From NCBI GenBank assembly GCA_046757445.1, contig JBHHYG010000003.1, positions 1 through 36,680 of the forward strand: 36,680 nucleotides of DNA, in the 5' to 3' direction. The first letter of the stretch is position 1. Every line of letters begins with the position of its first letter. The position numbers were made by a program, and so were the translations under genes. The notes below the pieces were generated by a model. That model had not been told where the DNA came from, did no database searches, and saw nothing but the letters and a program-made list of their open reading frames with translations. Shown piece by piece: positions 1,715 to 18,370 of this stretch. This DNA comes from Acidobacteriota bacterium. GTDB lineage: Bacteria; Acidobacteriota; UBA890.

Positions 1715-2026
1715 ATGTTCGAGTTGCTGGGGGTCGTGCTGATCGCGGCAGTGGTCGGAGCCGTGATCCTGGCGGGCTGGCTGCTGCTGTTGCCCTTCTA
1801 CCTTCTCTTCCGCTTGGCCGGCTTCGCGCTCAAGTTCACCTTCGGCGGCATCTTGCTGCTGCTGGGCGCACTGATCTTGCTGCCGCTGGCCTTGATCATC
1901 GGCGCCATCTTGCTGCTCAAGCTGATCTTCATCGTCATACCGTTGCTGCTCTTGGGGCTGATGATCTGGTGGCTGGCCGGCTTTCTGCGCCCGCGCAGCC
2001 GCGAGCCGTTGAGAAGTTCGGGCTAG
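1715..2026 (+). CDS. Small hydrophobic membrane protein, unknown function
   Basis: GGAGG RBS before GTG 1709/ATG 1715. Almost entirely Leu/Ile/Phe-rich. C-terminus is encoded by a repeat copy. Confidence 0.7.
   Translation: MFELLGVVLIAAVVGAVILAGWLLLLPFYLLFRLAGFALKFTFGGILLLLGALILLPLALIIGAILLLKLIFIVIPLLLLGLMIWWLAGFLRPRSREPLRSSG
1986..2026 (-). repeat. MITE-like palindromic repeat, partial copy 1 (one end)
   Basis: Reverse complement CTAGCCCGAACTTCTCAACGGCTCGCGGCTGCGCGGGCGCA closely matches the copies at 16743 and 36627. Confidence 0.85.
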
Positions 2027-3009
2027 GGCTGTAGGTCTACAAGATCCAGTAAAGCCCGCCGCACCTCGACGCGGGCCATCTTCTTGCGCCAGTAGAGGGT
2101 CAGGTCGGCGTTGTCCAGTGGCGTTGCCGCCGCGGCTGCGGCCTCTGCCGCCGCCTCGATGAGCTCCGGGCTGAGCGTTTCACCCACCATCAACCGCTCT
2201 GCCTCGACGACTTCGACGGGATGGGTGTGGACGGCACCGAGAACGATCTTTGCCCGCCGCGCCCTACCGTCTTCAATCTCGAGGGCTGTGGCGACGCCGA
2301 GAATGGGAAAATCGAAGCTGCCTCGGCGGCGCACCTTTCGGTAGCTGCAGCGCAACCCGGCAGCGGCGGGAACGACGATGCGGATGAGGATCTCGTTGGG
2401 CTGCCGGGTCAAGTAGTTGATGCCATCGTCCTGGTAAAGGGCCTCGACCGGTATCGTTCGCTCCCCGGCAACACCGGCGAGCACCACTTCTGCCCCGAGG
2501 CTGATCAGCACCGGCGCCGTATCGCTGGAAGAGATGGCCCAGCATTTCCGGCTGCCGGGGGCCACCAGGCAGACGGCACCGTCCTTCTTCATGCAGAAGC
2601 CGATCGACTTCCGCCACTCATGGGTCTGGTTGTAGTAGTTGCAGCGGGTGTCGACGCACAAGTTGCCACCCAGGGTGCCCATCCGCTGGATCTGGGGGTT
2701 GGCGATCTGCGAGGCCGCCTGGGCCAGCGCCGGAAAGCGAGATCGCACCGCCTCGGAGCGGCCGAGCTGGTAGAGGGTCACTCCGGAGCCTAGCAGCAAG
2801 CCCGCGCCATCGGCGTCGATGGCCCGTAGCTCGCCGAGGCCCTGCAGAGATACCAGCACCGCGGGTTCGAACTGGCGGCGCTTGAGGTTCGGCAACAGGT
2901 CAGTACCGCCCGCCACGAGCATGGCCCGGCCGCCACCCTCCGCCATCATCTGCGTTGCCTCCTCGAGCGTGGCGGGACGCCGGTACTCGAAGGGCGGCAA
3001 TCTCAGCAT
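2023..3009 (-). CDS. hcrB: 4-hydroxybenzoyl-CoA reductase-like FAD/[4Fe-4S] (beta) subunit
   Basis: AGGTDL and TLGGNL FAD motifs, plus the Cys-rich insertion (RCNYYNQTHEWRKSIGFCMKKDGAVCLVAPGSRKC) typical of HcrB-type subunits. Confidence 0.85.
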   Translation of the reverse strand: MLRLPPFEYRRPATLEEATQMMAEGGGRAMLVAGGTDLLPNLKRRQFEPAVLVSLQGLGELRAIDADGAGLLLGSGVTLYQLGRSEAVRSRFPALAQAASQIANPQIQRMGTLGGNLCVDTRCNYYNQTHEWRKSIGFCMKKDGAVCLVAPGSRKCWAISSSDTAPVLISLGAEVVLAGVAGERTIPVEALYQDDGINYLTRQPNEILIRIVVPAAAGLRCSYRKVRRRGSFDFPILGVATALEIEDGRARRAKIVLGAVHTHPVEVVEAERLMVGETLSPELIEAAAEAAAAAATPLDNADLTLYWRKKMARVEVRRALLDLVDLQP

Positions 3010-5525
3010 GGTTTTTCTCCCTCGCGGCGAGTGGTAGGAACCCAGTTCTCAGGCTCGTCGCCATACCAGACCGGATCGACGTGGATCGGCTCCGGCCACT
3101 CGACCTGAGGCACCTTCTCCGGACCCACCGCGGCCCCTTGCCCCTTCTCGGAACCCACCTGGCGTGCCCTACCCTTGTCGGGACCCACCTGGGCCCTTGG
3201 CTCCTTATCGGGACCCAGTAGGCCGGGTTCGCCTCCAGCAGCCCCTGCCAACCCCTCGAGCACCTTCTCGGGGGTGATCGGCAGCTCGCGGATGCGCACG
3301 CCGACGGCGTCGTAGAGGGCGTTGGCGACCGCCGGCGGCACCGGCAGCAAGGGTCCCTGCCCCGCCTCCTTGGCGCCGAACGGGCCCTCACCGTCGAGGC
3401 TCTCCACCAGGAAGGTCTCCACTTCGGGCATTTCCAGGAAAGTCGGGCTCTTGTACTCGAGCATCGACGGGAACTTGTGCAGCCCCTTCCGGAAGACTTG
3501 CTCTTCCATGAAGATCTCGCCGAGCGCCATGTAGACGGAACCCTCCACCTGGCCCTCGACGAGCACCGGGTTGATGGCCCGCCCACAGTCGTGCGCGATC
3601 CAGATCTTCTCGGGGGTCACGATGCCGGTTTCGGGATCGACCCCCAGTAGCGCCACGCAGGCGGAGTAGGAGTAGGCCGGTGCCGGACCAACCCCCGAGC
3701 CCTTGAACGGCCCGGCCAGCTTTTGTGGTCTGTAGGAGCCGGTAGCGGTCAGCTGCCCGTAGCGGCTCTCGGCCAGCGGCACCGCCTCCTGGAAGGAGAG
3801 CTGCCTGCCGGACGGCGGGTGGACGATCTGCCCCGCCCGTGCCACCAGCTCCGCTGCCGGCACCTCCAGCTTGTCGGCGGCGGCGGCGAGGATCTTGTCG
3901 CGGATCTCCTCTGCTGCCTGCTGCGCCGCCCTGCCCATCATGAAAGTGACGCGGCTCGAGTAGGAACCGAGGTCGATGGGCGTGGTGTCGGTGTCGGCGG
4001 TGGTCAGCTGCACCTCCTGCGGGTGGATGCCGAGCACCTCGGCCACCACCATGGCGAGCACCGTGTCGGAGCCCTGGCCGATGTCGATCTCCATGCACTT
4101 GGCGCTGACGCCGCCGCCGCGATCGACCTTGAGGTCCACCGAGGTATGCGGCATGTCGTTCCAGTAGATCGGCAGCCCGGCACCGGTCAGGTAGGAGCCG
4201 ACGCCCAGGCCGATGCCTTTGCCGAAGGGCAGGTGGCGGTGGCGGCGGCTGAAATCGGAGGCCTCGACGACCTTGTCGATGCACTCCTTCAGTCCACAGG
4301 AGGTAATGCGCAGATGGTTGACGGTCATCGAGTACTCGTCGACACAGATCGACTTTCGGTAAGCGGCCGGGTCGAGGCCGAGCGCCTCGGCGATCTCGTC
4401 GATCTGGCACTCCAGTGCGTAGCGGGGCTGCGGCGTGGCGTGCCCGCGCTTGGGGCCGCAGGGAGGCTTGTTGGTGAACACCCTCAGGCCCCGGAAGCGA
4501 TAGGCGGGAACCTTGTAGGTAACCGTCTGCAGGGCGCCGGTGTAGTAGGTGCTGGCGACCCCGTAGCTGCCATAGGCGCCGCCATCGACGAACGACTGGA
4601 AATCGATGGCGGTGATGGTGCCGTCCCGCTTGACGCCGGTCTTGATCGACATCAGCACCGGGTGTCGGCCGCGATGCATGTAGAAGACCTCCTCCCGCAG
4701 CAGGGTGATCTTTACCGGCCGGCCGGTGAGCATGGCGAGCTTGGCGGCGCAGAACTCGTGCGGGAAAGGGTCGGACTTACCGCCGAAGCCGCCCCCCACC
4801 GGTGTGGCGATCACGCGGATGCGGCTGGCCGGTATCTGCAGCACCTGCGCCAGGGCCTTGTGGACATAATGTGGGGTCTGGGTGGACGACCAGAGCGTCA
4901 GCTTGCCGTCGGCGCCGTAGCGGGCGACGGCGCAATGTTGCTCCATCGGCAGATGGGTGCTACCGCCGTAGAAGTAGATGCCCTCGAAGATCTCGTCGGC
5001 GGCGGCAAAGCCCGCCTCGACGTCACCGTACTGCAAGGCCACCTGCTTGTGCAGGTTGCCCCGCGGCCCGTAGTCGTGGATCCGCTCCAGTCCTTCGACT
5101 CTCTCCAGCCCCGACTCGATGGTGAAGGCGGTAGGCAGCTCCTCGTACTCCACCTCGATGAGCCGCAGCGCTTCTTCGCAGGTGAACTCGTCGACGGCGG
5201 CGACAGCGGCGATGGGGTCGCCGACGAAACGCACGCGGTCGATCTCGAGCGGGTACTCGTCCTCGCTCACCGGCAAGATGCCGTACTTGACCGGCAAGTC
5301 CTTGCCGGTGATCACCGCCATGACGCCGGGGAGCGCCTCGGCCTTGGCGGTATCGATATCGAGGATGCGGGCGTGCGGCCGGTGGCTGCCGAGCAGTCTG
5401 CCGGTGAGCATGCGCGGCAGCTGCAGATCGTCGGCGTAGACGGTCTCGCCGGCGGCCTTCTCCAAGCCATCGACCTTGGCCAGCGGCTTGCCGATGATGG
5501 CCAGCTTCTCCGACCCCTGGCTCAT
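3003..5525 (-). CDS. hcrA: Xanthine-oxidase-family molybdopterin subunit, HcrA-like
   Basis: Motifs GGGFGGK, RGH, DIGQG, GSYSSR, GQVEG and GPFGAKE. ATGA overlap with hcrC. Flanked by hcrC- and hcrB-like genes. Confidence 0.8.
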   Translation of the reverse strand: MSQGSEKLAIIGKPLAKVDGLEKAAGETVYADDLQLPRMLTGRLLGSHRPHARILDIDTAKAEALPGVMAVITGKDLPVKYGILPVSEDEYPLEIDRVRFVGDPIAAVAAVDEFTCEEALRLIEVEYEELPTAFTIESGLERVEGLERIHDYGPRGNLHKQVALQYGDVEAGFAAADEIFEGIYFYGGSTHLPMEQHCAVARYGADGKLTLWSSTQTPHYVHKALAQVLQIPASRIRVIATPVGGGFGGKSDPFPHEFCAAKLAMLTGRPVKITLLREEVFYMHRGRHPVLMSIKTGVKRDGTITAIDFQSFVDGGAYGSYGVASTYYTGALQTVTYKVPAYRFRGLRVFTNKPPCGPKRGHATPQPRYALECQIDEIAEALGLDPAAYRKSICVDEYSMTVNHLRITSCGLKECIDKVVEASDFSRRHRHLPFGKGIGLGVGSYLTGAGLPIYWNDMPHTSVDLKVDRGGGVSAKCMEIDIGQGSDTVLAMVVAEVLGIHPQEVQLTTADTDTTPIDLGSYSSRVTFMMGRAAQQAAEEIRDKILAAAADKLEVPAAELVARAGQIVHPPSGRQLSFQEAVPLAESRYGQLTATGSYRPQKLAGPFKGSGVGPAPAYSYSACVALLGVDPETGIVTPEKIWIAHDCGRAINPVLVEGQVEGSVYMALGEIFMEEQVFRKGLHKFPSMLEYKSPTFLEMPEVETFLVESLDGEGPFGAKEAGQGPLLPVPPAVANALYDAVGVRIRELPITPEKVLEGLAGAAGGEPGLLGPDKEPRAQVGPDKGRARQVGSEKGQGAAVGPEKVPQVEWPEPIHVDPVWYGDEPENWVPTTRREGEKPC
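3113..3217. repeat. In-frame 30-bp tandem repeat (about 3.5 copies) in the hcrA 3' end
   Basis: CCTT-T-C-G-ACCCA-type units recur at 3113, 3143, 3173 and 3203, encoding LGPDKEPRAQ/VGPDKGRARQ/VGSEKGQGAA/VGPEK. Confidence 0.9.
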
Positions 5526-6217
5526 AGCCGCTCCACCTCGGAGCCTGCACCCCGGCAACCGGCACGAAACTCTGCAGCGGCGCTGCCCCGCTCGCCCTCC
5601 ACCGGCACCGGCAGTGGCAGCGACCCGGGTCCCTCATCTCCGGCGCTACCATGTTTGCCTTCTACGGGGGGGATTGGATCCGGCATCGACTCTGGAGGCT
5701 GTGGGCCGATCGGGCGATGCTCCGGGTCGGGGTCTCCGGACGCGGCCCTCCGGGCGATGCGCTCGGCGGCCAGCTCGACGGCCTCGAGGATCTGCAGGTA
5801 GCCGGTGCAGCGGCAAAGGTTGCCGGCAAGGTAGGCGGCAATCTCCTGCCGTCGTGGTGCCGGCTGCTCCTCCAGCAAGGCCTTCGCCGCCATCAGGATG
5901 CCGGGGGTGCAATAGCCGCACTGCGCCGCCCCGAGCTCGGCGAAGGCCACCTGCAGCTCGTGTGGTCGTCCGTTGCGAGCCAGACCCTCGATGGTCTCGA
6001 TTTGCCGTCCTTGGAGGTCGACAGGCAGGCCGAGACAGGAGAGATAGGGCTCGCCGTCGACCAACACCGTGCAGGTGCCACACTCCCCTAGCTCGCAGCC
6101 GTGTTTGGTGCCGGTGAGCCCGAGATCCTCGCGCAACACCTCGAGCAGAGTCTTGTATACAGGGACCAGCAGCTCGTGCTCCTCGCCGTTGACCTGCAGC
6201 CGTATGCGTTCCTTCAT
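5522..6217 (-). CDS. hcrC: 2x[2Fe-2S] (gamma) subunit, HcrC/CoxS-like
   Basis: GCELGECGTC...C and QCGYC...NLCRC motifs. Pro-rich C-terminal tail. Confidence 0.88.
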   Translation of the reverse strand: MKERIRLQVNGEEHELLVPVYKTLLEVLREDLGLTGTKHGCELGECGTCTVLVDGEPYLSCLGLPVDLQGRQIETIEGLARNGRPHELQVAFAELGAAQCGYCTPGILMAAKALLEEQPAPRRQEIAAYLAGNLCRCTGYLQILEAVELAAERIARRAASGDPDPEHRPIGPQPPESMPDPIPPVEGKHGSAGDEGPGSLPLPVPVEGERGSAAAEFRAGCRGAGSEVERL

Positions 6218-6275
6218 CGGCAAGCTTTTTTCTACCCTGTTCGCAGACCAAGGCCAGCATACCCGACGCCGCTCC

Positions 6276-7055
6276 TCAACGGTGGTGCCAGTCGGGCTCT
6301 CTCTTCTCGATGAAGGCGCGGATGCCCTCGGCCATATCCTCGGTGGCCGTCAGTTGCCGAAGATAGAGCTGTTCGGAGCGCTCCAGCGCCCGTCCCCAGG
6401 CCTCCTCGCTGGCGGCATGGATCGCCTTGCGGGTGATGCGCAGGGCCGCGCGGCTGAGCCCGCCGAGGCGATCCAGGAGGGCGTCGGTCTCGACCTCCAG
6501 CCGGTCGTCCGGCACAACCCAGTTGACCAACCCATAGCCGGCGGCTGTCGAAGCCGTGATCGGCTCCCCCAGATAGAGCAGCTGGCAGGCGCGGTGATGG
6601 CCGATACGGCCTGGCAGGATGGCGGCAGCGACGGGCGGAAAACAGCCGAGCTTGATCTCCGGCTGGCCGAAACGGCTGCTGTTGCCAGCCACCACCAGGT
6701 CACAGGCACTGACCAGCTCGCAGCCACCACCGAGAGCCGCTCCCTGCACCACGGCCAGGGTCACCGGTTCGAGGCTCCAGAGCCGGCGAAGGAGGCGGTG
6801 AAAAGACTCCAGCATGGTTTCCACGCGCTCGGGCGTGTGGGCCTCGACGTCGACGCCGGCGCAGAATGCCTTCTCTCCGGCGCCGTGCAGGACGAGCACC
6901 GACAGGTCGGCCTTGTCGGCGGCAACCTGTAAGGCACGGTCGAGCTCGTCGATAACCTCCAGGGTGAGGACGTTGACCGGCGGGTTGTCGATCGTCAGGT
7001 GGACAACTTGCCCTTGTTCTTGGTAGCGGATGGTTTGAAAGTCAGCACTCGCCAT
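6276..7055 (-). CDS. Enoyl-CoA hydratase, cyclohexadienoyl-CoA hydratase (Dch/BamR)-like
   Basis: AGVDVEAH, GGGCEL and FGQPEIKLGCFPP resemble the Dch subfamily as recalled. Start could be GTG 7061. Confidence 0.75.
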   Translation of the reverse strand: MASADFQTIRYQEQGQVVHLTIDNPPVNVLTLEVIDELDRALQVAADKADLSVLVLHGAGEKAFCAGVDVEAHTPERVETMLESFHRLLRRLWSLEPVTLAVVQGAALGGGCELVSACDLVVAGNSSRFGQPEIKLGCFPPVAAAILPGRIGHHRACQLLYLGEPITASTAAGYGLVNWVVPDDRLEVETDALLDRLGGLSRAALRITRKAIHAASEEAWGRALERSEQLYLRQLTATEDMAEGIRAFIEKREPDWHHR

Positions 7056-7107
7056 CGTCACTCACACCCTGAGGGCATCGTCGGACGACCCCTTGCGGCC
7101 CGCACCA

Positions 7108-7899
7108 CTACTTGCCCCGGAAACGGGCCGGCCGCTGCTCCAGGAAGGCGGCCAGCCCCTCGGCGAAATCCTCGCTGTTGAAGCAAGCCTCCTGGGCTTC
7201 TACCTCCCGTGCCAGCGCTTGCTCGAGAGAGCCCTCGATGCCGGCGCGGATCAGATACTTGGCATGACTCACTGCTTCTCGTGCGACGCCTTTCGTGGTG
7301 GCGATCCGCTGTGCCGTCGCGCGCAACTCCTCCTCGTCGACGAGCTCGTGAACCAGGCCTACTTGCGCTGCCTCCGCCGCCGGAATCAGTCGCCCGCTGA
7401 GCACCATTTCGAGCGCCCGTGCGGGGCCGACGAGCCGCGGTAGCCAGAAGCTCGCTCCCCAATCAGGCGCCAGGCCGAGCTTGCCCCAGGTCGCGCCGAA
7501 GCGTGCCCCCAGCGTCGCCACCCTGATGTCACAGGCCAGGGCCAGGGCCAATCCGGCCCCGGCGGCGACACCGTTGACAGCGGCCACCGTCAGGCCCGGA
7601 AACGCCTGCAGCGACAGGATCACCTCCGCCCCGGCGTGCAGCAGAGCGCGGAAGCCGGCCTCGTCACCCTGCCGGCGTAACGCCGCCATGGCGTCGACGT
7701 CGCCGCCGGCACAGAAGGCGGCGCCAGCGCCGGTGACGACCAGCGCCCTGACCTCCCCCGCCTCCGCCGCCTCTTTGATACGGGAGCGCAGCTGCTCCCG
7801 CATCTGTCCGGCCAGGGAGTTCAGTTTGTCCGGCCGCTCGAGCGTGATCCAACCGACATGCCCGCTACGCTCGTAGCCGATGTGGCCACCAGCACTCAC
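7108..7899 (-). CDS. Crotonase-family isomerase, PaaG-like
   Basis: FCAGGD. GAGLALAL lacks the first catalytic Glu. GLAPDWG carries the Asp typical of PaaG-type isomerases. GTGA overlap with the thiolase stop. Confidence 0.8.
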   Translation of the reverse strand: MSAGGHIGYERSGHVGWITLERPDKLNSLAGQMREQLRSRIKEAAEAGEVRALVVTGAGAAFCAGGDVDAMAALRRQGDEAGFRALLHAGAEVILSLQAFPGLTVAAVNGVAAGAGLALALACDIRVATLGARFGATWGKLGLAPDWGASFWLPRLVGPARALEMVLSGRLIPAAEAAQVGLVHELVDEEELRATAQRIATTKGVAREAVSHAKYLIRAGIEGSLEQALAREVEAQEACFNSEDFAEGLAAFLEQRPARFRGK

Positions 7900-9125
7900 C
7901 TCCGAGCTCCCTGCTTGTAGCTCGTTCGCTCCACGAGCATCGACGCGCCCATCCCCCCTGACACACACAATGTCGCAAGACCCCGACGGGCCTGGCGTCG
8001 GCACATCTCGTGCATCAGGGTGACCAGAATCCGCGCGCCGGTACAACCGATAGGATGTCCCAGCGCGATGACACCACCATTGACATTGAGCCTATCGGCA
8101 TCGAAATGCAACTGGCGATCCACCGCCAGCACCTGGGCGGCGAAGGCCTCGTTCAACTCGACCAGATCGATATCGGCCAGCGACAGGTCGGTCGCCGCCA
8201 ACAGCTCCCGTACCGCCGGCACTGGCCCAATGCCCATGACCGCTGGATCGACGCCCGCCTGGGTAGCAACGACGAGCCGTGCCATGGGCTCCACAGCCAG
8301 CCTCCGTGCTGCATCCTCTGACAGCACCAGCATCGCCGCCGCCCCATCGACGACACCGCTACTGTTGCCGGCGTGCACCGTGCCGTCCTCCTTCTTGAAG
8401 ACCGGGCTGAGCCGGGCCAGCTGCTCCATGGTGACCTCATCCCGCGGATGCTCGTCGACATCAACGATCGCCGTTTCGCCGCCCTTGCCCACCGATACCT
8501 CGACCGGCACGATCTCGTCGACGAAGCGTCCATCCTCTCGCGCCAGCTGGCAGCGCCGCTGCGTCTCCATGGCGTAGCGATCCTGCTCCTGACGGCTGAT
8601 CTCGTATTGTTCGGCCAGCCGCTCCGCCGTGCTGCCCATGAGCTCGCCACAAAGCGGGCACAGAAAGCCGTCCCTGTACTGGCCGTCGAGGACCTCGGCG
8701 TGGCCCAGCCGATACCCCCAGCGAGCCCCCGGCAGCAGATAGGGGGTATTGCTCATGCTCTCGGTGCCGCCGGCGAGCATCACCTCGGCGGCGCCGGCGG
8801 CCACCGTTTGAGCGGCCAGCATCACCGCTTTTAGCCCGGATGCGCAGGCCTGATTGACGGTGTACGCCGGGGAGGTCTCCGGAACCCCCGCCCCCATGGC
8901 GATCTGGCGCGCCGGGTTGGGCCCGCAGCCGGCCTGACGGGCGTGGCCGAAGACGGTCTCGGAAATCTCGGCGGCGGCCATGCCGCTGCGCTTGAGCACC
9001 GCCTTGGCGGCGCCGATGCCGAGCTGCACGGCACCGAGGCTCCGTAGCGCGCCGCCGAATCTGCCGATCGGTGTGCGCACCGGGGCTGCGAGCACCACCG
9101 GTCGCGCTGCGCGGAAGTCGAACAT
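7896..9125 (-). CDS. Acetyl-CoA C-acyltransferase (thiolase)
   Basis: NQACASG, NEAF, GHPIG and CVSGG catalytic motifs. Confidence 0.95.
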   Translation of the reverse strand: MFDFRAARPVVLAAPVRTPIGRFGGALRSLGAVQLGIGAAKAVLKRSGMAAAEISETVFGHARQAGCGPNPARQIAMGAGVPETSPAYTVNQACASGLKAVMLAAQTVAAGAAEVMLAGGTESMSNTPYLLPGARWGYRLGHAEVLDGQYRDGFLCPLCGELMGSTAERLAEQYEISRQEQDRYAMETQRRCQLAREDGRFVDEIVPVEVSVGKGGETAIVDVDEHPRDEVTMEQLARLSPVFKKEDGTVHAGNSSGVVDGAAAMLVLSEDAARRLAVEPMARLVVATQAGVDPAVMGIGPVPAVRELLAATDLSLADIDLVELNEAFAAQVLAVDRQLHFDADRLNVNGGVIALGHPIGCTGARILVTLMHEMCRRQARRGLATLCVSGGMGASMLVERTSYKQGARR

Positions 9126-9169
9126 GGCTCCTGCTGGCTGGCGGCGATGGCTGCCGTGCCGGGTCGCGC

Positions 9170-10648
9170 TCAGCCGAGATCCACCCAGATGTTCTTGACC
9201 TGGGTGTAGTGCTCCAGGGCGTGGGCGCCGAGCTCACGTCCGAAGCCGCTCATCTTGTAGCCGCCGAAGGGGGCGGCCGCATCGTAACGGTTGTAGGTAT
9301 TCACCCATACGGTGCCGGCCCGCAGGCGTCGGGCGATGCGATGGGCGCGGCCGATATCCCGGCTCCAGACGGCGGCGGCGAGACCATAGGGGGTGTCGTT
9401 GGCCTGGGCGATGGCGCTCTCCTCATCGTCGAAAGCGATGGTCGCCAGCACCGGCCCGAAGATTTCCTCGCGGGCGATGCGCATGGAGTTGTCGACCTGA
9501 TCGAAGACCGCGGGCCGCAGGAAAAAGCCGTCGCCCTTTCCCACCACGGCGCGATCACCGCCGGTGCGTAGCCGCGCCCCCTCCTCTTTGCCGGCGCCGA
9601 CGTACTCGAGAACCTTATCCATCTGCTGGCTGGAGACGATGGCTCCCATGCGCGTTTTCGGGTCGAGCGGGTCGCCGGGCACCAGCTTCTCGGTGCGCGC
9701 AACCACACGGTCGATGAACTCCTCGGCGACGGCGCTGTCGACGAAGAGACGACTGCCGGCGGCGCACACTTCCCCCTTGCCGTAAAAGATACCGATGGTC
9801 GCGCCCTTGGCGGCGGCGTCGAGGTCGGCGTCGGCAAGCACGATGTTGGGTGACTTGCCGCCCAGCTCGAGGGTGATCTTCTTCAGGGTGTCGGCGGAGC
9901 CACGCAGGATCTCCTGCCCGGTGGCGGTCTCGCCGGTGAAGGCGATCTTGTCGACGTCGGCATGGCGCACCAGCGCGGCGCCGACCCGCGAGCCCTGACC
10001 GGGCACGACATTGAGCACACCCGGCGGCAAGCCGGCCTTGGCGACCAGCTCGGCCAGCTTCAGTGCGGTCAGGGGCGTGTTGCTGGCCGGCTTCAGCACC
10101 ACCGTGTTGCCCATCGCCAGCGCCGGTGCCACCTTCCAGGATGCCAGCAGCAGCGGAAAGTTCCAGGGAACGATCGCCGCGACCACGCCAACAGGCTCGC
10201 GCAGGGTGTAATCGAGGACGTTGCCGTTCACCGGAATGGTCTCGCCGTGCAACTTGTCGGCCCAACCGGCGTAGTACTGGAAGACCTCGGCGACCATGGG
10301 GACGTCGACGTAGCGTGACTCGAAGATCGGCTTGCCGTTGTCGAGGGTCTCGAGCAGGGCGACGTCCTCGAGCTCGTCGCGCAGCAGCTCGCCCAGCCGC
10401 CAGAGGATGCGACCGCGCTCCCGAGCCGCCATCTCGGCCCAGGGACCGTTGTCGAAGGCCTCTCGAGCCGCCGCCACGGCACGGTCGACATCGCTACGAC
10501 TCGCCGCGGCCACCTCGGCAAGCACCTCGCCGGTGGCCGGATTGACGGTGGCGAAGGAGGCGCCACCCTCGGCATCGCTCCATTCGCCGGCAATGAACAG
10601 TTTGCGCGGCGATGCCTCGATCACCGCGCCGACCGCCTCGATCGTCAT
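9170..10648 (-). CDS. NAD(P)-dependent aldehyde dehydrogenase (BoxD-like role by context)
   Basis: PWNFP, FTGE, ELGGKSP, GEVCAAG and EEIFGP motifs. Confidence 0.95.
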   Translation of the reverse strand: MTIEAVGAVIEASPRKLFIAGEWSDAEGGASFATVNPATGEVLAEVAAASRSDVDRAVAAAREAFDNGPWAEMAARERGRILWRLGELLRDELEDVALLETLDNGKPIFESRYVDVPMVAEVFQYYAGWADKLHGETIPVNGNVLDYTLREPVGVVAAIVPWNFPLLLASWKVAPALAMGNTVVLKPASNTPLTALKLAELVAKAGLPPGVLNVVPGQGSRVGAALVRHADVDKIAFTGETATGQEILRGSADTLKKITLELGGKSPNIVLADADLDAAAKGATIGIFYGKGEVCAAGSRLFVDSAVAEEFIDRVVARTEKLVPGDPLDPKTRMGAIVSSQQMDKVLEYVGAGKEEGARLRTGGDRAVVGKGDGFFLRPAVFDQVDNSMRIAREEIFGPVLATIAFDDEESAIAQANDTPYGLAAAVWSRDIGRAHRIARRLRAGTVWVNTYNRYDAAAPFGGYKMSGFGRELGAHALEHYTQVKNIWVDLG

Positions 10649-10674
10649 GGTCCTGAATCCGTGGTGGCGGTGGG

Positions 10675-11451
10675 CTAGCTTCCCTTGAAGGCTGGAGCCC
10701 GCTTCTCGAGGAAGGCGTTCAAACCTTCTTTGGCATCCTCGGTGATGAACAGTCGGTTCTGCAGCTCGCGCTCGAGGGCCATCGCCTGCGCCAGGGGCAT
10801 TTCGATTCCCTCCTGCACGGCCACCTTGATGAGGCCGATGGCGCGCACGGCGCCTTGGTTCAGGTCGCGGGCGAAAGCCAGGGTCTCCTCGAGCACATCG
10901 CCGTCGAAAACCTCGTTGACCAGGCCGATCTGCTTGGCTTCCTCGGGGCTCAGGGTCTTGCCGGTAATCATCAGCTCCAACCCTCGGGACTTACCGACCA
11001 ACCGGGGTAGCCGCTGCGTGCCCCCGGTGCCCGGCAGCACCCCCAACGTGACCTCGGGGAGACCGATCTTGCCGACGTCCCTGCCCATGAAGCGGAGGTC
11101 ACAGGCCAAGGCGATCTCCAGGCCGCCGCCGACACAGTGGCCGTTGATGGCGGCGATGACGATCTTGGGAATACGCTCGAGCTCCATCAGCGTTTCCTGG
11201 CAGTGCAGGCAGAACATCGCCTTGTACTGCGGCTTGCTCTCTTTGAGCATCTTGATGTCGGCGCCGGCGGAGAAGAACTTGCCCCCGCCGGTGAGCACCA
11301 CGACGTTGATCTCCTCGTCGACGCGGACCTCCTCGATGACGCGATCCAGCTCTCGCATGAGGTCGAAATTGTAGGTGTTTGCGGGAGGCCGGTTGAGGGT
11401 AACCACCCCGATGCCGTCTTTCTTGTCTACCAGGAAGGACTCGTAGGACAT
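10675..11451 (-). CDS. Crotonase-family protein resembling the BoxC N-terminal catalytic domain
   Basis: SAGADIKML, KAMFCLHCQET, GGGLEIA and LPEVTLGVLPGTGG. Both catalytic Glu present. Confidence 0.85.
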   Translation of the reverse strand: MSYESFLVDKKDGIGVVTLNRPPANTYNFDLMRELDRVIEEVRVDEEINVVVLTGGGKFFSAGADIKMLKESKPQYKAMFCLHCQETLMELERIPKIVIAAINGHCVGGGLEIALACDLRFMGRDVGKIGLPEVTLGVLPGTGGTQRLPRLVGKSRGLELMITGKTLSPEEAKQIGLVNEVFDGDVLEETLAFARDLNQGAVRAIGLIKVAVQEGIEMPLAQAMALERELQNRLFITEDAKEGLNAFLEKRAPAFKGS

Positions 11452-11662
11452 GCGCACACTCCAGTACCGCGAAAGGTGAGAACGCTCGACCCGAAAGGGC
11501 CGGTGGGGCCGAGGCAACACGACCCGAACAGGGAGCAGAGTATCAGAGATGCGGAAGACCTATCAATGAACGGGTACGGCAGCCGGATGAACCTGTTGGC
11601 GAGCTGCCGATCAACCCCGATGGGTTCCCGCTAGTCTGCCAGGTGCGGCCGCGGCAGGCGGG

Positions 11663-11671
11663 TGCTAGAAT
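11663..11671 (+). promoter_or_regulatory. Putative extended -10 promoter element (TGcTAGAAT)
   Basis: TGn-TAnnnT match in the intergenic region upstream of the small ORF at 11768. Confidence 0.4.
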
Positions 11672-11767
11672 CAGGCTGATGGGCGTTGTTGCGGCGGGGG
11701 AGGCGCGCCGTAGCGCCCGCAGACGGATCTCTAGAGCCAAGACCGACACCATCCGACCTCCACATCT

Positions 11768-12022
11768 ATGGGAAAGCATGTACGAGTGGTACGAACTCCC
11801 GGCGAGCTGCGAGACACCATTGGTCACAAGATCATGGTTCGCAAGGACTGGCACGGCGAGGTTCTGAAAGAGCTCACCGGGGATGAGCTGGGCCCATTCG
11901 GCTTTCATCCCAAGCGCTTCGAAAAATTCTACCTGGTCCAGTTCAAGCAGTGGGCGCAGCCGATCGCCGTTCCGGCCACCAACCTGGTGAGCTTCTCGCC
12001 GCAGGAAGAGCGGACGGCTTGA
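11768..12022 (+). CDS. Small hypothetical protein (possible SH3-like beta barrel)
   Basis: 84 aa with GC3-rich codons. Fills the gap convergent to dgt. Strand-like segments VRVVR, GEVL and YLVQF. Confidence 0.65.
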   Translation: MGKHVRVVRTPGELRDTIGHKIMVRKDWHGEVLKELTGDELGPFGFHPKRFEKFYLVQFKQWAQPIAVPATNLVSFSPQEERTA

Positions 12023-12048
12023 GATCGGCCTGCTGCCGCTGAGCCGGC

Positions 12049-13191
12049 TTACTCGTCCCTCTCGAGAGTGCGGTACGCCTCCAGGGCGAAGCGATCGGTC
12101 ATGCCGGCGACATAGTCGGCAATGGCGACGACTTCGGGTACGGCGCCGAAGCGCCGGCGATGACGGGGCGGCAGCCGTTCAGGCTCCTTGCGGTAGGCGT
12201 CGAAAAGACCCCGCACCACCCCCCGCGCCCTCTCCATGGCGGCGGAGACCCGGGAACTCCGGTAGAGGTGCTGCATCAAGAAGCTGGCCACTCGCTCTAA
12301 CTCTTCGTAGACAACCGGGCTGTGGGCGACCAGCCGCTGCGGATGGCGGCGCACCGCTTCGACATCCGTGATGCCGGCAGCATCGATCTGGCCACGGGTG
12401 GTATCGATGAGGTCGGTGACCAGCCGATCCAGCATCCCGCGGTTCGACTCGTTGAAAAGCTGGTGAGGGTCAGCCTCGGGGAAGCGCTCTTTCTGCTTCT
12501 GGTATAGCTCGCCGAAGAGGGGCAACGCGGCGACCAGTTGCTCGACCGAGAGAATGCGGGCCTCGACGCCGTCGTCGAGATCGTGGATGTTGTAGGCGAT
12601 CTCGTCCACCCAATCGATGATCTGGGCTTCGAGATAGGGTTGCTCCTCGGGACGGTACTCGCGCAACTCATCGTGGCGGAAGCGGTCGTAGCGGGTGGTG
12701 TGCTTGACGATGCCCTCTCGCACCTCGTAGCTCAGGTTGAGGCCCTGGAAAGCTGCATACCGTTCCTCGAGCTCCTCGACGATGCGCAAGGCATGACGGT
12801 TGTGCTCGAAGCCCCCGTGCTCGGCGAGGCCGGCGTCCAAGGCTTCTTCGCCGGCGTGGCCGAAGGGCGGGTGCCCGAGGTCGTGGGCCAGCGCGATCGC
12901 CTCGGCCAGGGTGGTGTTCAGGCCGAGCGCCGCGGCCACCGTTCTGGCGATCTGGGAAACCTCGATGGTGTGGGTCAGGCGGGTGCGGAAGTGATCGCCC
13001 TCGTAGTTGGGAAAGACCTGGGTCTTATACTCCAGGCGGCGAAAGGCACGGGAATGGACGATGCGGTCGCGATCACGCTGGAAACAATCTCGGTAGGGAT
13101 GCTCTTCCTCGGGATAGCGCCGTCCGCGGGAAGCTTCGGCACGAGCTGCGTAGGGCGCCAGCGCCAACAAGTTACCTAGCCCGATGCGCAT
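12049..13191 (-). CDS. dgt: Deoxyguanosinetriphosphate triphosphohydrolase (HD family)
   Basis: FQRDRDRI, FRRLEYKTQV, RTRLTH, HDLGHPPFGHAGE and DYVAGMTD motifs. Confidence 0.95.
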   Translation of the reverse strand: MRIGLGNLLALAPYAARAEASRGRRYPEEEHPYRDCFQRDRDRIVHSRAFRRLEYKTQVFPNYEGDHFRTRLTHTIEVSQIARTVAAALGLNTTLAEAIALAHDLGHPPFGHAGEEALDAGLAEHGGFEHNRHALRIVEELEERYAAFQGLNLSYEVREGIVKHTTRYDRFRHDELREYRPEEQPYLEAQIIDWVDEIAYNIHDLDDGVEARILSVEQLVAALPLFGELYQKQKERFPEADPHQLFNESNRGMLDRLVTDLIDTTRGQIDAAGITDVEAVRRHPQRLVAHSPVVYEELERVASFLMQHLYRSSRVSAAMERARGVVRGLFDAYRKEPERLPPRHRRRFGAVPEVVAIADYVAGMTDRFALEAYRTLERDE

Positions 13192-13352
13192 GGATACATC
13201 CTAGCAGGCCATCGATCGGCCTTCGCCGTGGAGCAGAGGATAGATCATGACTTTGCTTGCGCTGAGCCCCCCGGCGAGGTAAAAGCCGCCCGGCAGGCCG
13301 CCGCTTCCCCGGCGCACTGCCGGCCGTGTACCCCCTTCGACGAGTCGCGACC

Positions 13353-14723
13353 GTGATCGAATCCGACCTTTCCGCCCAATTGACCGCCTTTTTCGTCTGG
13401 CTCAACGGTTATCTTTGGGGATGGCCGATGCTGGTGCTGTTGGTCGGCACGGGGATCTTCCTGACCGTCTACCTGGGTGGGGTGCAGTTTCGACTGCTCG
13501 GCCATGCCCTCTACCTAGCGCTGATCAAGAGAAAAGAGGACGAGCCCGCCGAGGGTGATATCACCCACTTCCAGGCGCTGATGACCGCCCTCGCCGCCAC
13601 CGTCGGCACCGGCAACATCGCCGGTGTGGCCACGGCCATCGCCGCAGGCGGCCCCGGAGCGCTGTTCTGGATGTGGATCACCGGGCTGTTCGGCATGGCG
13701 ACGAAGTTCGCCGAGGCCCTGCTCGCGGTCCGTTTCCGGGTCTCCGACCAGCGTGGTCAGATGAGCGGCGGGCCCATGTACTATCTGGCGCTGGGCGCGA
13801 AGATGCCCAAGGTCGGCAGCCTCTTCGCTTTGCTGGCTGCCCTCGCCGCCTTCGGCATCGGCAACATGGTGCAGAGCAACTCGGTGGCAGACGCCGTCCA
13901 CAGCACCTTCGGCCTGCAGCAGACCTATACCGGGCTGGCGATCGCCCTCGCCACCGGCCTGGTCATCCTCGGGGGCATCCGCAGCATCGCCCGGGTCACG
14001 CAGGTGATGGTGCCGGCGATGATCTTGCTGTACATGGGAGCCGCCCTGGTGGTGATCCTGCGCAATCTCGGCGGTGTGCCCTTGATCTTCACCCTGGTGC
14101 TGCGGGAGGCGTTCAGCCCCACCGCTGCGGCCGGCGGCTTTCTCGGCGCCACGGTTGCTCAGACCATGCGCTACGGCGTCGCCCGTGGCGTCTTTTCCAA
14201 CGAATCGGGCTTGGGATCGGCACCGATCGCCGCCGCTGCGGCGCAGACCAAGAACCCGGCCACCCAGGCCCTGGTGTCGATGACTCAGACCTTCATCGAC
14301 ACCATCGTCGTCTGCTCGATGACCGGCTTCGTGATCATCTTCACCGGGGCCTGGAGCTCGGGCCTCGACGGCGCCCCGCTGACCGTGGAAGCCTTTTCGC
14401 GCGGCCTCCCGGGCAACACCGGCGGTATCGTCGTCTCGCTCGGGCTGATCTTTTTTGCCTACTCCACCATCCTCGGCTGGTCGTATTACGGCGAGAAGTC
14501 GATCGCCTACCTGCTTGGCGAGCGCGCTGTCAAACCCTACCGCCTGCTCTTCACCTTGATGGCCTTTGTCGGTGCCATCGTCCACATCGACCTGGTCTGG
14601 GAGCTGGCGGACAGCATGAACGCCCTGATGGCGGTGCCCAACCTCATCGGCCTGCTGGCGCTGGCAGCGGTGACCCGGCGGGAAACGCGGGCCTACATCC
14701 GTGAGCTGCGCGACACCAAGTAG
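13353..14723 (+). CDS. Alanine/glycine:cation symporter (AgcS/AlsT family)
   Basis: [27 protein letters not shown] and FSNESGLGS motifs. Start uncertain (GTG 13326 or 13353). Confidence 0.95.
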
Positions 14724-14859
14724 CCAGCCCCATTGACGCCGACCCACGGCCAGGCTATCTTTGGAATGTGGGTCCCGCCGATTTTCTCTCCCCCACCCTT
14801 CCTTTCCACCGGTAGCAGCGAGGGTCGACCACTGGTCGGGCAGGTAGCCCGACCAGGGG

Positions 14860-16746
14860 GTGATTCGAATGCTGAGATACCGGCGACAGTCCTTGTGGGT
14901 GAGGGGCCTATCAGGCTGCGGGAAAACCCTCCTCGTGCTACTGCTGACGCTACTTCTTGCGGTCAGCGTCTCTGCACAAACCTCTGCTGACCACGAACTG
15001 CGGGCGCACCTCCGGTATTTCGAAGGCACTGTGTCCATGCAGCGTGCCGCCGCGGGCGAGACCCGAGCCGCCCTCATCAACCTGCCGCTGGACCCGGGCG
15101 ACCGCATCTGGAGTGGGGACGACGGCCGCGTCGAGCTGCTCTTCGACGACGGCTCGCTGCTGTGGATGGACGAGCAGACCACCATCGACCTGGAAAGCTT
15201 CGGCGGCCAGGCCGGGGGCGCCGGTATCATCATCAGGCTGTGGGCCGGAAGCATCTATGTGGCACGGCCCGCGCCCGACCGATACCACGAGCCCGCGGGG
15301 ATCGCCCGTGTCGATGCGCCGGCGGCCAGCGCTGTGCTGCCCGGCAGTGGCTTGTTTCGTCTCGACATCGACCAAGAGCAGCGCCTCTGGCTGTCCACCT
15401 ACCGGGGCTCGGGAGAGTTGATCGGCGGTGGCCGGAGCGAGCCCGTGGATGCCGGCGAAGAAAGCTACGCAGAAGGGAATAGCGCACCGGCACGGGCCAT
15501 CGCCTTCAATACCGCCGACCAGGACACTTTCGATCGCTGGCAAGCCGAGCAGGTCGCGCGCACGGCCTTGACCGAGCACCACGTCCGCGAGCGCTCCTAT
15601 GTGCCGAGGCAGATCGTGCACCACGCCGCCGATCTCGAGGGTCATGGCAGCTGGATCTACTACGATGACTACCACACCTGGGCCTGGCACCCTTACGTGG
15701 CCCCCTACTGGTCCCCGTTCCACGACGGACGTTGGGTCTATGCACACCATGGCTGGACATGGGTACCCTTTGCGCCGTGGGGCTATACCACGACTCACTA
15801 CGGGCGCTGGCACTTCACCAGCCACTACGGCTGGGTGTGGTTCCCCGGTAGCGTCTATTCACCGGCCTGGGTGCAGTGGTACGTGACGCCGTACCACGTC
15901 GGTTGGGTGCCGTTGAACTATTTCAACCGGCCCGCCGTAAGCATCGGCATCTTCTTCGGGAACGGCCATTCCAGCCATCACTTCGTTCACCACCCCCATT
16001 CCCACGACGACCATCACGACGCGGTCGTGCATGTCGGCACGCACGGCTCTGCCTTTGGCGGTCGAGCGGTACAAGGCCGTGGCTTCACATCCGGCCTCGA
16101 TCGGGCCTGGAACTTCGTACCCGCGGGCAAGCTCGGCAGTGAGGATGTCACGCACCTGGCCGTGCGGCGGGCCGACGTGGAAGCCGCCGAGCAGGGAGGC
16201 CCGAAGGCTCGTACCCTGTTGTCAGGCGCGCTACGTCCACGACGCCCGACGCAGCTGACGCCCTCGGTATCCCGACGGGCGGTACCAAGAACGGGCTTGG
16301 CGACACCGAGGCGAAACTCTGACGCAGCGAGGCGGGGCGAGCGCGGCAGCGTCACTGTGCCCCGGTCACCATCGGCCGGCCACAAGGCTGTACCTCGCGG
16401 CGGCGTACGGGGAATCGGCCGCCGCTCGCCGGCGAGGCCGCTGCCTTCGCCCGTGGCCTCACCCCGGCGGCCGCGCTCCTCGGGCAGTTCCTCGCCGGCG
16501 AGCGGAAGGCGTACGATGATCCGCAGCCCCTCACCGCCGACGCCCACTGCGAGGCCCCATCGCCAAGGGCGGAGTATTCACGCCGCGCCGAGGCCCAGGA
16601 CAAGTTCACCGGCCCGGCCGAAGACCATCCAGCGAGGTGGCCCGAGAGGATCGCACAGCAAGATCGCCAAACCGAGACCGACGACGGGGAAAAGTGCAAA
16701 GCGGGGGGCGCCTCGCAGGGCCCGGAGCAAGGCAAAGGGCAGCTAG
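14860..16746 (+). CDS. Secreted FecR-like + DUF6600-type protein with basic disordered tail
   Basis: Signal peptide, then FecR-like GDRIWSGDDGRVEL, Trp/Pro-rich GRW..GWTWV..PWG..HYGRW..WVWFPG..PAWV region, His-rich linker and Arg/Pro/Ser tail. Confidence 0.8.
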   Translation: MIRMLRYRRQSLWVRGLSGCGKTLLVLLLTLLLAVSVSAQTSADHELRAHLRYFEGTVSMQRAAAGETRAALINLPLDPGDRIWSGDDGRVELLFDDGSLLWMDEQTTIDLESFGGQAGGAGIIIRLWAGSIYVARPAPDRYHEPAGIARVDAPAASAVLPGSGLFRLDIDQEQRLWLSTYRGSGELIGGGRSEPVDAGEESYAEGNSAPARAIAFNTADQDTFDRWQAEQVARTALTEHHVRERSYVPRQIVHHAADLEGHGSWIYYDDYHTWAWHPYVAPYWSPFHDGRWVYAHHGWTWVPFAPWGYTTTHYGRWHFTSHYGWVWFPGSVYSPAWVQWYVTPYHVGWVPLNYFNRPAVSIGIFFGNGHSSHHFVHHPHSHDDHHDAVVHVGTHGSAFGGRAVQGRGFTSGLDRAWNFVPAGKLGSEDVTHLAVRRADVEAAEQGGPKARTLLSGALRPRRPTQLTPSVSRRAVPRTGLATPRRNSDAARRGERGSVTVPRSPSAGHKAVPRGGVRGIGRRSPARPLPSPVASPRRPRSSGSSSPASGRRTMIRSPSPPTPTARPHRQGRSIHAAPRPRTSSPARPKTIQRGGPRGSHSKIAKPRPTTGKSAKRGAPRRARSKAKGS

Positions 16747-16925
16747 CCCGCATTTCTCAACGGTTCGAGGCTGCGCGAGCGCAAGGGCCGCGATGACTGC
16801 GTTGCGCTTGGCTCGAGGGCTCGACGTACTGCACGAGTACGCCTGCGCCCTCGAACCGGCGCGCGCCTTGTCCTCGCGGCCCTTGCGCCCGCTCGCTTCA
16901 CGACCCGTTGAGAAATGCGGGCTAG
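16743..16925. mobile_element. Complete 183-bp MITE-like palindromic element (copy 2)
   Basis: Perfect 21-bp terminal inverted repeats CTAGCCCGCATTTCTCAACGG (16743-16763 and 16905-16925). Inner 15-bp IR at 16779-16793/16874-16888. Central CGTACT-gcacg-AGTACG hairpin. No transposase. Confidence 0.85.
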
Positions 16926-17089
16926 GTCCTCGAGAGATCCGTGCCAGGAGCCTGTTTCCGAGGGCAGAATTGCACGGCTGGGAACCTTGGCTTGTGCGGG
17001 TGGAGACGCTTGCATTCAGGCACACCCTAGACTACCATCGGCCCATCTGTGTGGGGGTGCGTGCCCCCGGTATTCTGGACACCTGCCAC

Positions 17090-17518: not shown

Positions 17519-17595
17519 TCGCCCGGCTCTCGAGCCCCTTTTTGCTGCAGCGCCGACGCCGGTGTCTCTTCCTACCGGGAAGCAACCGGGCAGGC

Positions 17596-17970: not shown

Positions 17971-18370
17971 CGTTCTGTCAGCCGGGTCGCGAGTATGCTC
18001 AGACGTTACCATGACTGGCCGTTGGCGGTATTGAATCCGCGGGGGCGCAGCGTGGGTGGGGGTTTCGTACGATTTTCGCCTGGATGGCCGATTCCCCCTT
18101 CCCTGCCTTCTCCTCCGCTCGGGGAATCTTCCGGAATCCCGCCTTCAACGACCTTGCGGTCTCGGCTCCGGCCACCTATGATTTGGCCGTCTGAGCTTCT
18201 CAGGGCGAGAGGGGTCAGCCCCCCACACCCGACCCCCCGCCCGAGGGATTCCGGGAGCCACCCACCGCCCACCCCACCGGAATCCCTACGTCTGTGGTCC
18301 GACCACCTCTCCACTGAGTGGTAGAGTCCTCGACCTGGAGCCATGCACCCGTTCAGCGGAGAAGCCCGTC

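Follow-up and report, generated by a model that had tools for sequence, protein, structure and literature searches.

A 4-hydroxybenzoyl-CoA reductase-like operon with a possible ring-cleavage-product module in an acidobacterium

The stretch of DNA studied here, which we call the window, is the entire 36,680-bp contig C3 in the genome of an uncultured member of the Acidobacteriota (3.99 Mb in 615 contigs), with a G+C content of about 65%. Eight open reading frames (ORFs), named with Pfam and NCBIfam, occupy positions 2023-11451 of its minus strand and end with the three subunits of a molybdenum enzyme similar to 4-hydroxybenzoyl-coenzyme A (CoA) reductase (4-HBCR, HcrCAB). In the direction of transcription, the genes encode ECH3, an enoyl-CoA hydratase with two catalytic glutamates of a generic short-chain or PaaF-like kind (10675-11451); an NAD(P)-dependent aldehyde dehydrogenase of class 1/2 type (ALDH, 9170-10648); a thiolase (acetyl-CoA C-acyltransferase, 7896-9125); ECH2, which has the crotonase fold and an active site of the PaaG (isomerase) type (7108-7899, with a start that may be off by a few codons); ECH1, a two-glutamate crotonase weakly similar to Dch (6276-7061); an HcrC-like subunit for two [2Fe-2S] clusters (FeS subunit, 5522-6223); an HcrA-like molybdopterin subunit (Mo subunit, 3003-5525); and an HcrB-like FAD subunit with a [4Fe-4S] insertion (2023-3009).

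Three of the seven gene junctions overlap: GTGA between the thiolase gene and ECH2, whose GTG start at 7899 overlaps the thiolase stop, ATGA between the FeS and Mo subunits, and ATGCTGA between the Mo and FAD subunits. The remaining four gaps are 26-52 nt. The eight tightly packed, co-directional genes with start/stop overlaps described in the original prediction were thus confirmed on the minus strand. The arrangement exceeds chance and the gene order recurs in relatives; the overlaps and the conserved order together argue for co-transcription.

For all three terminal genes, the best NCBIfam model was the 4-HBCR equivalog. Their products have the subunit make-up of that enzyme, a Mo-pterin alpha, an FAD beta and a 2x[2Fe-2S] gamma subunit, as recognized by Pfam and TIGR03193/03194/03195. 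The HcrCAB of Thauera aromatica (PDB 1RM6/1SB3), which shares this composition, the cofactors and the gamma-alpha-beta order, is the closest solved relative of the alpha and beta subunits. The Mo subunit matched 1rm6_A with 609.6 bits, the next family (CO dehydrogenase) reaching 274.6 bits; the FAD subunit matched 1rm6_B with 200.7 bits in an alignment that spans the insertion in the FAD domain. The four-cysteine insertion of about 40 residues that is characteristic of the 4-HBCR beta subunit is present, and its cysteines (Cys123, Cys139, Cys147 and Cys156) recur in 79 of the 83 homologous FAD subunits examined. These cysteines presumably bind an extra [4Fe-4S] cluster that passes low-potential electrons to 4-HBCR. 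The insertion is tied to reversed electron flow in 4-HBCR. The predicted HcrCAB-type enzyme is therefore present, with every subunit below its equivalog cut-off: the assignment is solid as homology, and the enzyme is probably a reductive aroyl-CoA dehydroxylase, its exact substrate being a matter of interpretation.

Compared with the Thauera enzyme, two subunits are longer. The FeS subunit carries, beyond the Pfam domains Fer2 and Fer2_2 (residues 10-150 of 233), a low-complexity, proline-rich C-terminal extension of about 75 aa (5522-5770), which was matched to query residue 200 or further in 6 of the 89 matching subject sequences, the window itself included. In the Mo subunit, the C-terminal tail comprises about 80 aa (3003-3245). 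Its end motif, VGP..VP...WPEP..VDPVWYD.PPE.WV.T.RR, is common to the closest Acidobacteriota loci, and the window tail additionally carries GP-DK-like repeats.

A scan with the Mo subunit of one genome per species returned 529 encoding stretches, from which the best 80 were taken as related loci. Their Mo subunits are 59-76% identical to that of the window, and they come from metagenome-assembled genomes labelled Acidobacteriota, Methylomirabilota/Rokubacteria, Chloroflexota, Binatia and others. We built a FastTree phylogeny of 90 rows (91 extracted sequences minus one fragment shorter than 700 aa; the locus of the unpublished genome G052 was left out), which has SH-like supports only and was midpoint-rooted for drawing only. 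In it, the window Mo subunit lies within a clade of seven Acidobacteriota rows (support 100), all of which have an ALDH and/or thiolase context.

Among the accessory proteins, ECH2 lacks both hydratase glutamates and instead aligns, through AAGAG-LALA and GL-PD, with the Thermus thermophilus structures 6sl9/3hrx and with 2ej5; these motifs are repeated in four orthologues and in the copy of genome G043, described below. The Asp of the Pro-Asp motif is catalytic in PaaG. ECH2 is thus a PaaG-type isomerase by its predicted active site, although its scores on the PaaG model TIGR02280 (171.1 and 170.7 bits) do not reach the cut-off of 345.15; its score on the oxepin_alt model was 170 bits. The second PaaG-like gene of the genome (on contig C195, 170.4 bits) was dismissed, because it encodes the crotonase member of a generic trio, with a thiolase and a 3-hydroxybutyryl-CoA dehydrogenase, that lies next to leu genes. 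On that contig (locus L129), leuC is split into several frame pieces (2155-3412), by frameshifts or assembly errors.

ECH3 (Pfam ECH_1, 216 bits) aligns with canonical crotonase through its GGGLE and LPE motifs and keeps both hydratase glutamates, as does ECH1. Its best NCBIfam model was PRK07658 (241 bits, cut-off 313), the PaaF model giving 204 bits, and among structures 2ppy (278 bits) stood above PaaF (4fzw_A, 170.7 bits). We considered ECH3 as a hydroxycinnamoyl-CoA hydratase/lyase and rejected this, its site being an ordinary two-glutamate one and the lyase model not being among its 25 best NCBIfam matches. A 4-chlorobenzoyl-CoA dehalogenase was also rejected, as no such name occurs among the PDB matches of any of the three crotonases at E≤1e-25.

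ECH1 is the only match to the Dch model TIGR03189 in the genome at E≤1e-30, and this model is its second-best NCBIfam match. The scores (152.4 and 151.9 bits) do not reach the cut-off of 292.5, so the label of a Dch-like crotonase stands as the best candidate of the genome and not as an assignment. The Dch-like genes beside bcrC in the relatives G008 and G013 themselves reach just 212-220 bits, and ECH1 shares an F-P-P-x-AA loop with the one in G008.

The thiolase (Pfam Thiolase_N and Thiolase_C) exceeds the cut-off of the general model TIGR01930 (451 against 240.55 bits). It resembles acetoacetyl-CoA, BktB and 3-oxoadipyl-CoA thiolases, with BktB (420 bits) and PcaF (369-375 bits) both below their own cut-offs. 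The ALDH (Pfam Aldedh, 617 bits) matched BADH (615 bits), PRK13252 (598, cut-off 593), StyD (585) and HpaE (544) in NCBIfam, and 4qf6 (545 bits) and ALDH2 (538 bits) among structures. Its sub-cut-off matches include dehydrogenases of ring-fission semialdehydes, namely HpaE and 2-hydroxymuconic semialdehyde dehydrogenase (470 bits). The 25 best of its 43 NCBIfam matches are BADH, StyD, HpaE, PuuC and similar enzymes, and no BoxD model is among them.

The labels BoxC and BoxD given by the original prediction were thus not borne out. All three crotonases are single-domain proteins of 258-263 aa, whereas BoxC has two domains and about 550 aa; across the genome, TIGR03222 (cut-off 712.3 bits) was matched best by ECH3, with 74.2 bits over model positions 42-219. 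By its best matches, the ALDH is an ordinary enzyme of class 1/2. Of the predicted PaaG-like crotonase, the active site was found, in ECH2, and the family-level score was not.

In six of the 80 related loci (L008-L013, all labelled Acidobacteriota), the order is ECH3-ALDH-thiolase-ECH2-HcrCAB with an IclR gene in place of ECH1; in L008, this gene was identified by Pfam and sits between ECH2 and hcrC. Upstream of the Hcr trio, 15 of the 80 loci had a match to an IclR-like gene. In none of the 80 was ECH1 matched at E≤1e-20; it was found only in the window, where it occupies the position of the regulator gene. L010 has no ECH3 match and L012 no called ALDH ORF. ECH2 is present in L008-L013 and the window, that is, in all seven rows, and is the accessory gene that most constantly adjoins hcrC. 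Within the module, ECH2 (51-62% identical) and the ALDH (72-82% in relatives of the family and order) belong to the best conserved members. The same HD-domain gene lies upstream of the operon in these loci. The operon order was also seen in genomes G021 and G027, and G040 has TetR-ECH3-ALDH-thiolase-ECH2 on a short contig. Of the adjacent gene pairs, ECH3-ALDH is conserved most widely. Some genes in these loci are broken into several frame pieces, namely the ALDH gene in L009 (4595-6063) and the Hcr subunit genes in L153 of G021 (3632-7223), again by frameshifts or assembly errors.

Other Hcr-type loci are directly linked to ring-attack genes. In 26 of the 80 loci, true boxC (931.6 bits) and boxB (862.5 bits) lie just downstream of the Hcr trio (L022, L027, L031, L032, L037-L039, L041, L043, L044, L047, L050, L052, L060, L062, L063, L069-L072, L074-L076, L083, L084 and L087). 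These loci are mostly labelled Methylomirabilota/Rokubacteria; a helix-turn-helix-cupin regulator, boxC and boxB follow the trio on the same strand, and a benzoate-CoA ligase and a PaaK-like ligase are often present as well. Among all 80 loci, benzoate-CoA ligase occurs in 19 and PaaK-like ligase in 40. Genes like those of benzoyl-CoA reductase (BCR) were not found within 10 kb in any of the 80. In the tree, the Box-linked Hcr genes form a separate clade of 30 rows (support 99), 26 of which have box genes.

A second kind of linkage was found in G043, a genome of a different acidobacterial family with an Hcr above the cut-off. In its locus L111 (G043:C20, about 5400-19800, minus strand), a TetR gene heads a cluster of ECH3-like (53%), ALDH (66%), UDG-superfamily, PaaG-type ECH2-like (39%) and short BoxB genes, followed by two CoA-transferase subunits, a rhodanese, HcrCAB, an amidohydrolase_2, a 3-hydroxyacyl-CoA dehydrogenase and a Macro-domain gene. 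The short BoxB has 373 aa and gave 196 bits with TIGR03225. ECH3, ALDH and ECH2 homologues are therefore common to this cluster and the window, and the window enzyme belongs to the same wider Hcr family as the Box-linked ones (59-66% identical). In contrast to both kinds of clusters, the window lacks BoxB, BoxC, benzoate-CoA ligase, PaaK-like ligase and CoA transferase, has an Hcr of another clade, and adds the thiolase and ECH1. It represents a further variant, in which enzyme family and accessory module are the same but an oxygenase is absent. In the literature that we searched, we found no description of the Hcr-Box clusters or of the short-BoxB cluster. Within the accessible part of one report, 4-HBCR and boxB are both listed for SAR324 bins, unlinked (PMC4782131). 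Our search for 4-HBCR in Acidobacteria gave no paper on the topic, as judged by title and abstract.

We searched for ring-attack genes in the host genome and its family and order (26 genomes, the host included). The host genome is rated 90.7% complete and 1.05% contaminated, so that a gene missing from it is not proven absent. It gave no TIGR03225 (BoxB) match, and tblastn with the L037 BoxB and the G043 short BoxB found nothing there. BoxB was found in none of the 26 genomes, not even in G008, which is 96% complete. For the short BoxB, the family and order yielded no orthologue, its only matches being to a PaaA-like gene at 21-23% identity. AFOR_N, the marker of BamB (class II BCR), matched neither in the host genome nor in its 25 relatives. 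Taken together, BoxA, BoxB, BoxC and a canonical PaaABCDE were not found in the host, which differs in this from the Box and Paa pathways. The Box-type ring cleavage that had been placed downstream of the Mo enzyme was therefore not borne out in this lineage. It does hold for the 26 loci with true boxC and boxB, and the idea of a Box hybrid is only partly supported.

The recognizable candidates in the host genome are two class-I BCR-like sets. One, a TetR gene with C, B, A/D and D genes, lies on the 5.6-kb contig C245 (384-5235), and the other consists of C and B genes and lies on contig C451 (2.8 kb; 98-2796). The two are paralogous (71-78% identical), and the ATPase subunits on C245 are short (272 and 279 aa). 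The best models were BcrC and BcrB. The C, B, A and D genes of C245 gave 273.5, 211.4, 213.9 and 134.6 bits against cut-offs of 421, 487, 578 and 313 (D cut at 187 aa by the locus end), so that the class-I models TIGR02259-02263 are all matched below their cut-offs. G007, G012 and G038 likewise gave sub-threshold matches to BcrC; BcrC-like genes were found in nine of the 26 genomes, above the cut-off in five. The genome-wide search proposed by the original prediction, boxAB and paaABCE against bcr, bam, had and oah, thus yielded two divergent BCR-like sets and no BoxB, BamB or Had.

G008 is of the same family and has the same operon (as L010). It carries a cluster of Had (411.8 bits), Oah (548.8), Dch-like (211.8), BcrC (497.6), BcrB (683) and BcrA (574.8) genes, Had, Oah, BcrC and BcrB being above cut-off. 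Such a canonical Had-Oah-Dch-BcrCBA cluster is present in both G008 and G013 of this family, each together with the same Hcr operon. A classical Bcr pathway in the absence of BoxB, which the original prediction had named as evidence that would count against it, is therefore found in the sister genus g4. The host genome shows only half of this picture, with divergent BCR-like sets and neither Had nor Oah found. A different CoA-dependent aromatic route appears to be encoded in G008 at L128 (G008:C1, about 4000-14400), where a benzoate-CoA-ligase-like gene, a crotonase and an acyl-CoA dehydrogenase lie with a protein that exceeds the cut-off of the model for bifunctional salicylyl-CoA 5-hydroxylase/oxidoreductase (1115 against 1078 bits).

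Heme-copper oxidase subunit I was found in 24 of the 26 genomes, the host included. A divergent trio of a PaaA-like gene, a 95-aa ORF and a PaaC-like gene occurs in 18 of the 26, outside any paa catabolic cluster. It is seen in L124 of G008 (8887-11312), and the host has the PaaC-like gene on contig C416 (1-867). The PaaA- and PaaC-like scores are below threshold (147 against 280 and 102 against 133 bits). In G008, the genes lie among those for a lipoprotein, a CBS protein and a betaine-type ABC transporter, without a reductase or other paa genes, and G027 lacks even these genes. A canonical Paa system as the partner of the operon was rejected as the main reading, since no match to ECH1-3, ALDH, thiolase or ligase was found within about 10 kb of these genes in G008, G011, G020 or the host contig C416.

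Across the phylum, an Hcr-like gene (E≤1e-150) was found in 35 of 61 sampled genomes. BoxB was present in 8 of the 35, BcrC-like genes in 15, and AFOR_N in 4 of the remaining 16. These tallies include G052, on which no other result here depends, use one marker per system and count related genomes that are not independent.

From these results, we propose that the operon may serve the CoA-dependent breakdown of phenolic acids of the 4-hydroxybenzoate type in a facultatively aerobic acidobacterium, a reading to which we give a probability of roughly 0.4. By homology, the Hcr-type enzyme would be supplied with low-potential electrons by way of the additional [4Fe-4S] cluster in its FAD subunit and reductively remove the para-hydroxyl group of an aroyl-CoA, most likely giving benzoyl-CoA. 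The ring would then be attacked by enzymes encoded elsewhere; in the host genome, the two class-I BCR-like sets are the recognizable candidates, of which the one on C245 is headed by TetR. Finally, the accessory module would turn ring-opened aliphatic CoA esters into acetyl-CoA and a dicarboxyl-CoA, by the successive action of the ALDH, ECH2 as a delta3,delta2-isomerase, the hydratases ECH3 and ECH1, and the thiolase. This last step is suggested by the enzyme types, the active-site motifs and the linkage.

The ALDH, isomerase, hydratase and thiolase are the types of enzymes of the lower Box and Paa pathways (BoxD/PaaZ, PaaG, PaaF, PaaH, PaaJ; PDB 4FZW, 6SL9). In the final reactions of these routes, such enzymes form succinyl-CoA and acetyl-CoA from 3,4-dehydroadipyl-CoA semialdehyde. 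The module is this finishing set minus the 3-hydroxyacyl-CoA dehydrogenase; it differs from it further in that the cut-offs for PaaG, PaaF and PcaF are not reached and in that its ALDH is of class 1/2. To our knowledge, the classical Dch/Had/Oah route yields neither an aldehyde nor a 3-enoyl-CoA, and for this reason the route probably departs in part from both the aerobic and the anaerobic classical form. In G043, homologues of three members of the module stand beside a BoxB-like oxygenase, which favors a role after ring cleavage over the shortening of side chains. The original idea of an operon joining anaerobic-type with epoxide-pathway-type enzymes is thus retained in the enzyme types of the module, in ECH2 and in the G043 linkage, and was not borne out for BoxC and BoxD.

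Several observations weigh against this proposal. The Mo, FAD and FeS subunits score 838.4, 277.1 and 185.2 bits on TIGR03194, TIGR03195 and TIGR03193, below the respective cut-offs of 994.55, 404.55 and 257.8. The three acidobacterial HcrA genes that do exceed the cut-off are just 47-51% identical to the window Mo subunit and fall outside an 81-row clade (support 99). Because of the sub-cut-off scores and the clade distinct from that of above-cut-off HcrA, the substrate is not established. ECH3 and the thiolase fit generic beta-oxidation equally well, and neither NCBIfam nor Pfam revealed a 3-hydroxyacyl-CoA dehydrogenase within the operon. The composition of the module varies (L013 lacks the ALDH and L011 the thiolase), and in G035 and G053 the ECH3-ALDH pair stands isolated and unlinked to Hcr. 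The BCR-like proteins of the host are 30-43% identical to the canonical BCR of G008 and below cut-offs, on contigs of 5.6 and 2.8 kb whose binning is uncheckable. Had gave no match in the host genome at E≤1e-30, and Oah gave a weak 78.6-bit fragment at a contig end. Compared with the Thauera-type BcrCBAD/Dch/Had/Oah pathway, the host therefore shares a four-gene BCR-like set, none of it in the window, and G008 and G013 share the classical set. Moreover, 12 of the 35 Hcr-positive genomes have neither BoxB nor BcrC-like nor AFOR_N genes. Seven of these (G011, G020, G027, G030, G034, G052 and G059) are at least 90% complete, and in G011, G020 and G027 (91-95%) no known consumer of benzoyl-CoA is visible. 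These 12 genomes remain unexplained. They would be explained if, in this lineage, the Mo enzyme and the co-transcribed module belonged to a route that opens the (hydroxy)benzoyl-CoA ring with neither BoxB nor class-I BCR nor BamB, which we regard as improbable; an unrecognized ring-attacking enzyme might then yield the aldehyde and 3-enoyl-CoA, or the Mo enzyme might produce a dearomatized keto-tautomer that is cleaved by the hydratases.

Other explanations assign the accessory genes differently. They might belong to a side-chain pathway, in which the hydratases, thiolase and ALDH shorten a 4-hydroxyphenyl acyl-CoA or oxidize 4-hydroxybenzaldehyde, so that phenylpropanoids of the p-coumarate type or ketones of the p-ethylphenol type become 4-hydroxybenzoate or 4-hydroxybenzoyl-CoA and are then dehydroxylated by Hcr. 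Clusters of hydratase/lyase, aldehyde dehydrogenase and thiolase genes serve ferulate catabolism in Pseudomonas, and 4-hydroxybenzoyl-CoA is formed thiolytically in Aromatoleum; the wide conservation of the ECH3-ALDH pair, with the thiolase next to it in the window, fits such a scheme. However, ECH3 has an ordinary hydratase site, the p-hydroxycinnamoyl-CoA hydratase/lyase model is absent from its 25 best matches (it gives 170.7 bits with the generic crotonase on C195), the operon lacks an aryl-CoA ligase and a 3-hydroxyacyl-CoA dehydrogenase by NCBIfam and Pfam, and a PaaG-type isomerase, constant in all seven rows, serves no function when a 2-enoyl side chain is shortened. We consider this pathway doubtful. 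A purely classical anaerobic route, from Hcr to BCR, with ECH1 as the dienoyl-CoA hydratase, ECH3 and the thiolase in the beta-oxidation of pimelyl-, glutaryl- and crotonyl-CoA, and ALDH and ECH2 as unrelated passengers, would agree with the BCR-like sets of the host, the canonical clusters of G008 and G013, the rank of ECH1 as the best Dch match of the genome and the crotonase-like ECH3. This reading is rather unlikely, because the supposed passengers ALDH and ECH2 are conserved and linked across several families, G008 already has a Dch-like gene adjoining bcrC, ECH1 is confined to the window with IclR in its place in relatives, and the host lacks Had and Oah.

The (micro)aerobic Box hybrid as first proposed would need BoxAB and BoxC in the unassembled 9% of the genome, or a diiron oxygenase of the PaaA/PaaC-like kind instead. 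The true BoxC and BoxB genes behind 26 related Hcr trios, the short BoxB with a homologous module in G043, the PaaC-like gene on C416 and the PaaA/PaaC-like pairs in 18 of 26 genomes, as well as the terminal oxidase of the host, speak for it. Its weight is reduced to very unlikely by the lack of BoxB, full-length or short, in the host and of BoxB in all 26 genomes, by the 74.2-bit best BoxC match, by the separate clade of Box-linked Hcr genes, and by PaaA/PaaC-like genes that are sub-threshold, lie among unrelated genes in G008 and are missing in G027. It is just as hard to credit that the Mo enzyme is another member of the xanthine oxidase family acting on a different (hetero)aroyl-CoA, or that the neighborhood has no functional meaning. 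Equivalog scores below cut-off throughout, the clade-specific tail of the Mo subunit and the 12 Hcr genomes without a benzoyl-CoA-consuming marker would be expected then; in contrast, the [4Fe-4S] insertion is kept, 4-HBCR scores about twice the bits of the next structural relative, the sister clades adjoin benzoate-CoA ligase, BoxB and BoxC, which use benzoyl-CoA, and the overlaps and conserved order argue for co-transcription.

Upstream of the operon lies an intergenic region of 597 bp (11452-12048), presumably the promoter region. Scans for promoters and terminators gave no more sites than in shuffled sequence; the single sigma-70-like match, at 11566-11539, was not above shuffles (1 against a shuffled mean of 1.2). 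By Pfam, the other 20 ORFs of the window encode housekeeping or unrelated proteins, such as MetH, TrpRS, an aminotransferase, transporters and an HD-domain phosphohydrolase. As predicted, none of the 20 is a BCR, BoxB/PaaA, aryl-CoA ligase or regulator. The sole AMP-binding protein of the window (21211-24054, minus strand) is a 947-aa AMP-binding/PP-binding/acyltransferase fusion unrelated to the operon. An Rfam scan of the window found only three tRNAs, the likewise unrelated Leu-taa, Cys-gca and Gly-gcc (26433-26514 and 35067-35251). Two DNA read sets, both from one study and labelled hydrothermal vent metagenome, contain the window sequence and may be the source sample; among the read sets listed, none was of RNA.

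4-HBCR is treated as a marker of strictly anaerobic degradation of aromatic compounds. Here, a sister clade of this enzyme occurs in oxygen-respiring Acidobacteriota, in one operon with enzymes typical of the ends of aerobic CoA-epoxide routes; the Thauera enzyme differs in these operon partners and in that the acidobacterial host encodes a terminal oxidase. In many such genomes, no known system for dearomatizing benzoyl-CoA is visible. If the accessory genes serve ordinary beta-oxidation, this would be a routine hcr operon in an unusual host. If the module handles ring-cleavage products, the ring-attack step is still to be found, and surveys based on marker genes would misjudge the turnover of phenolic and lignin-derived acids at oxic-anoxic interfaces.

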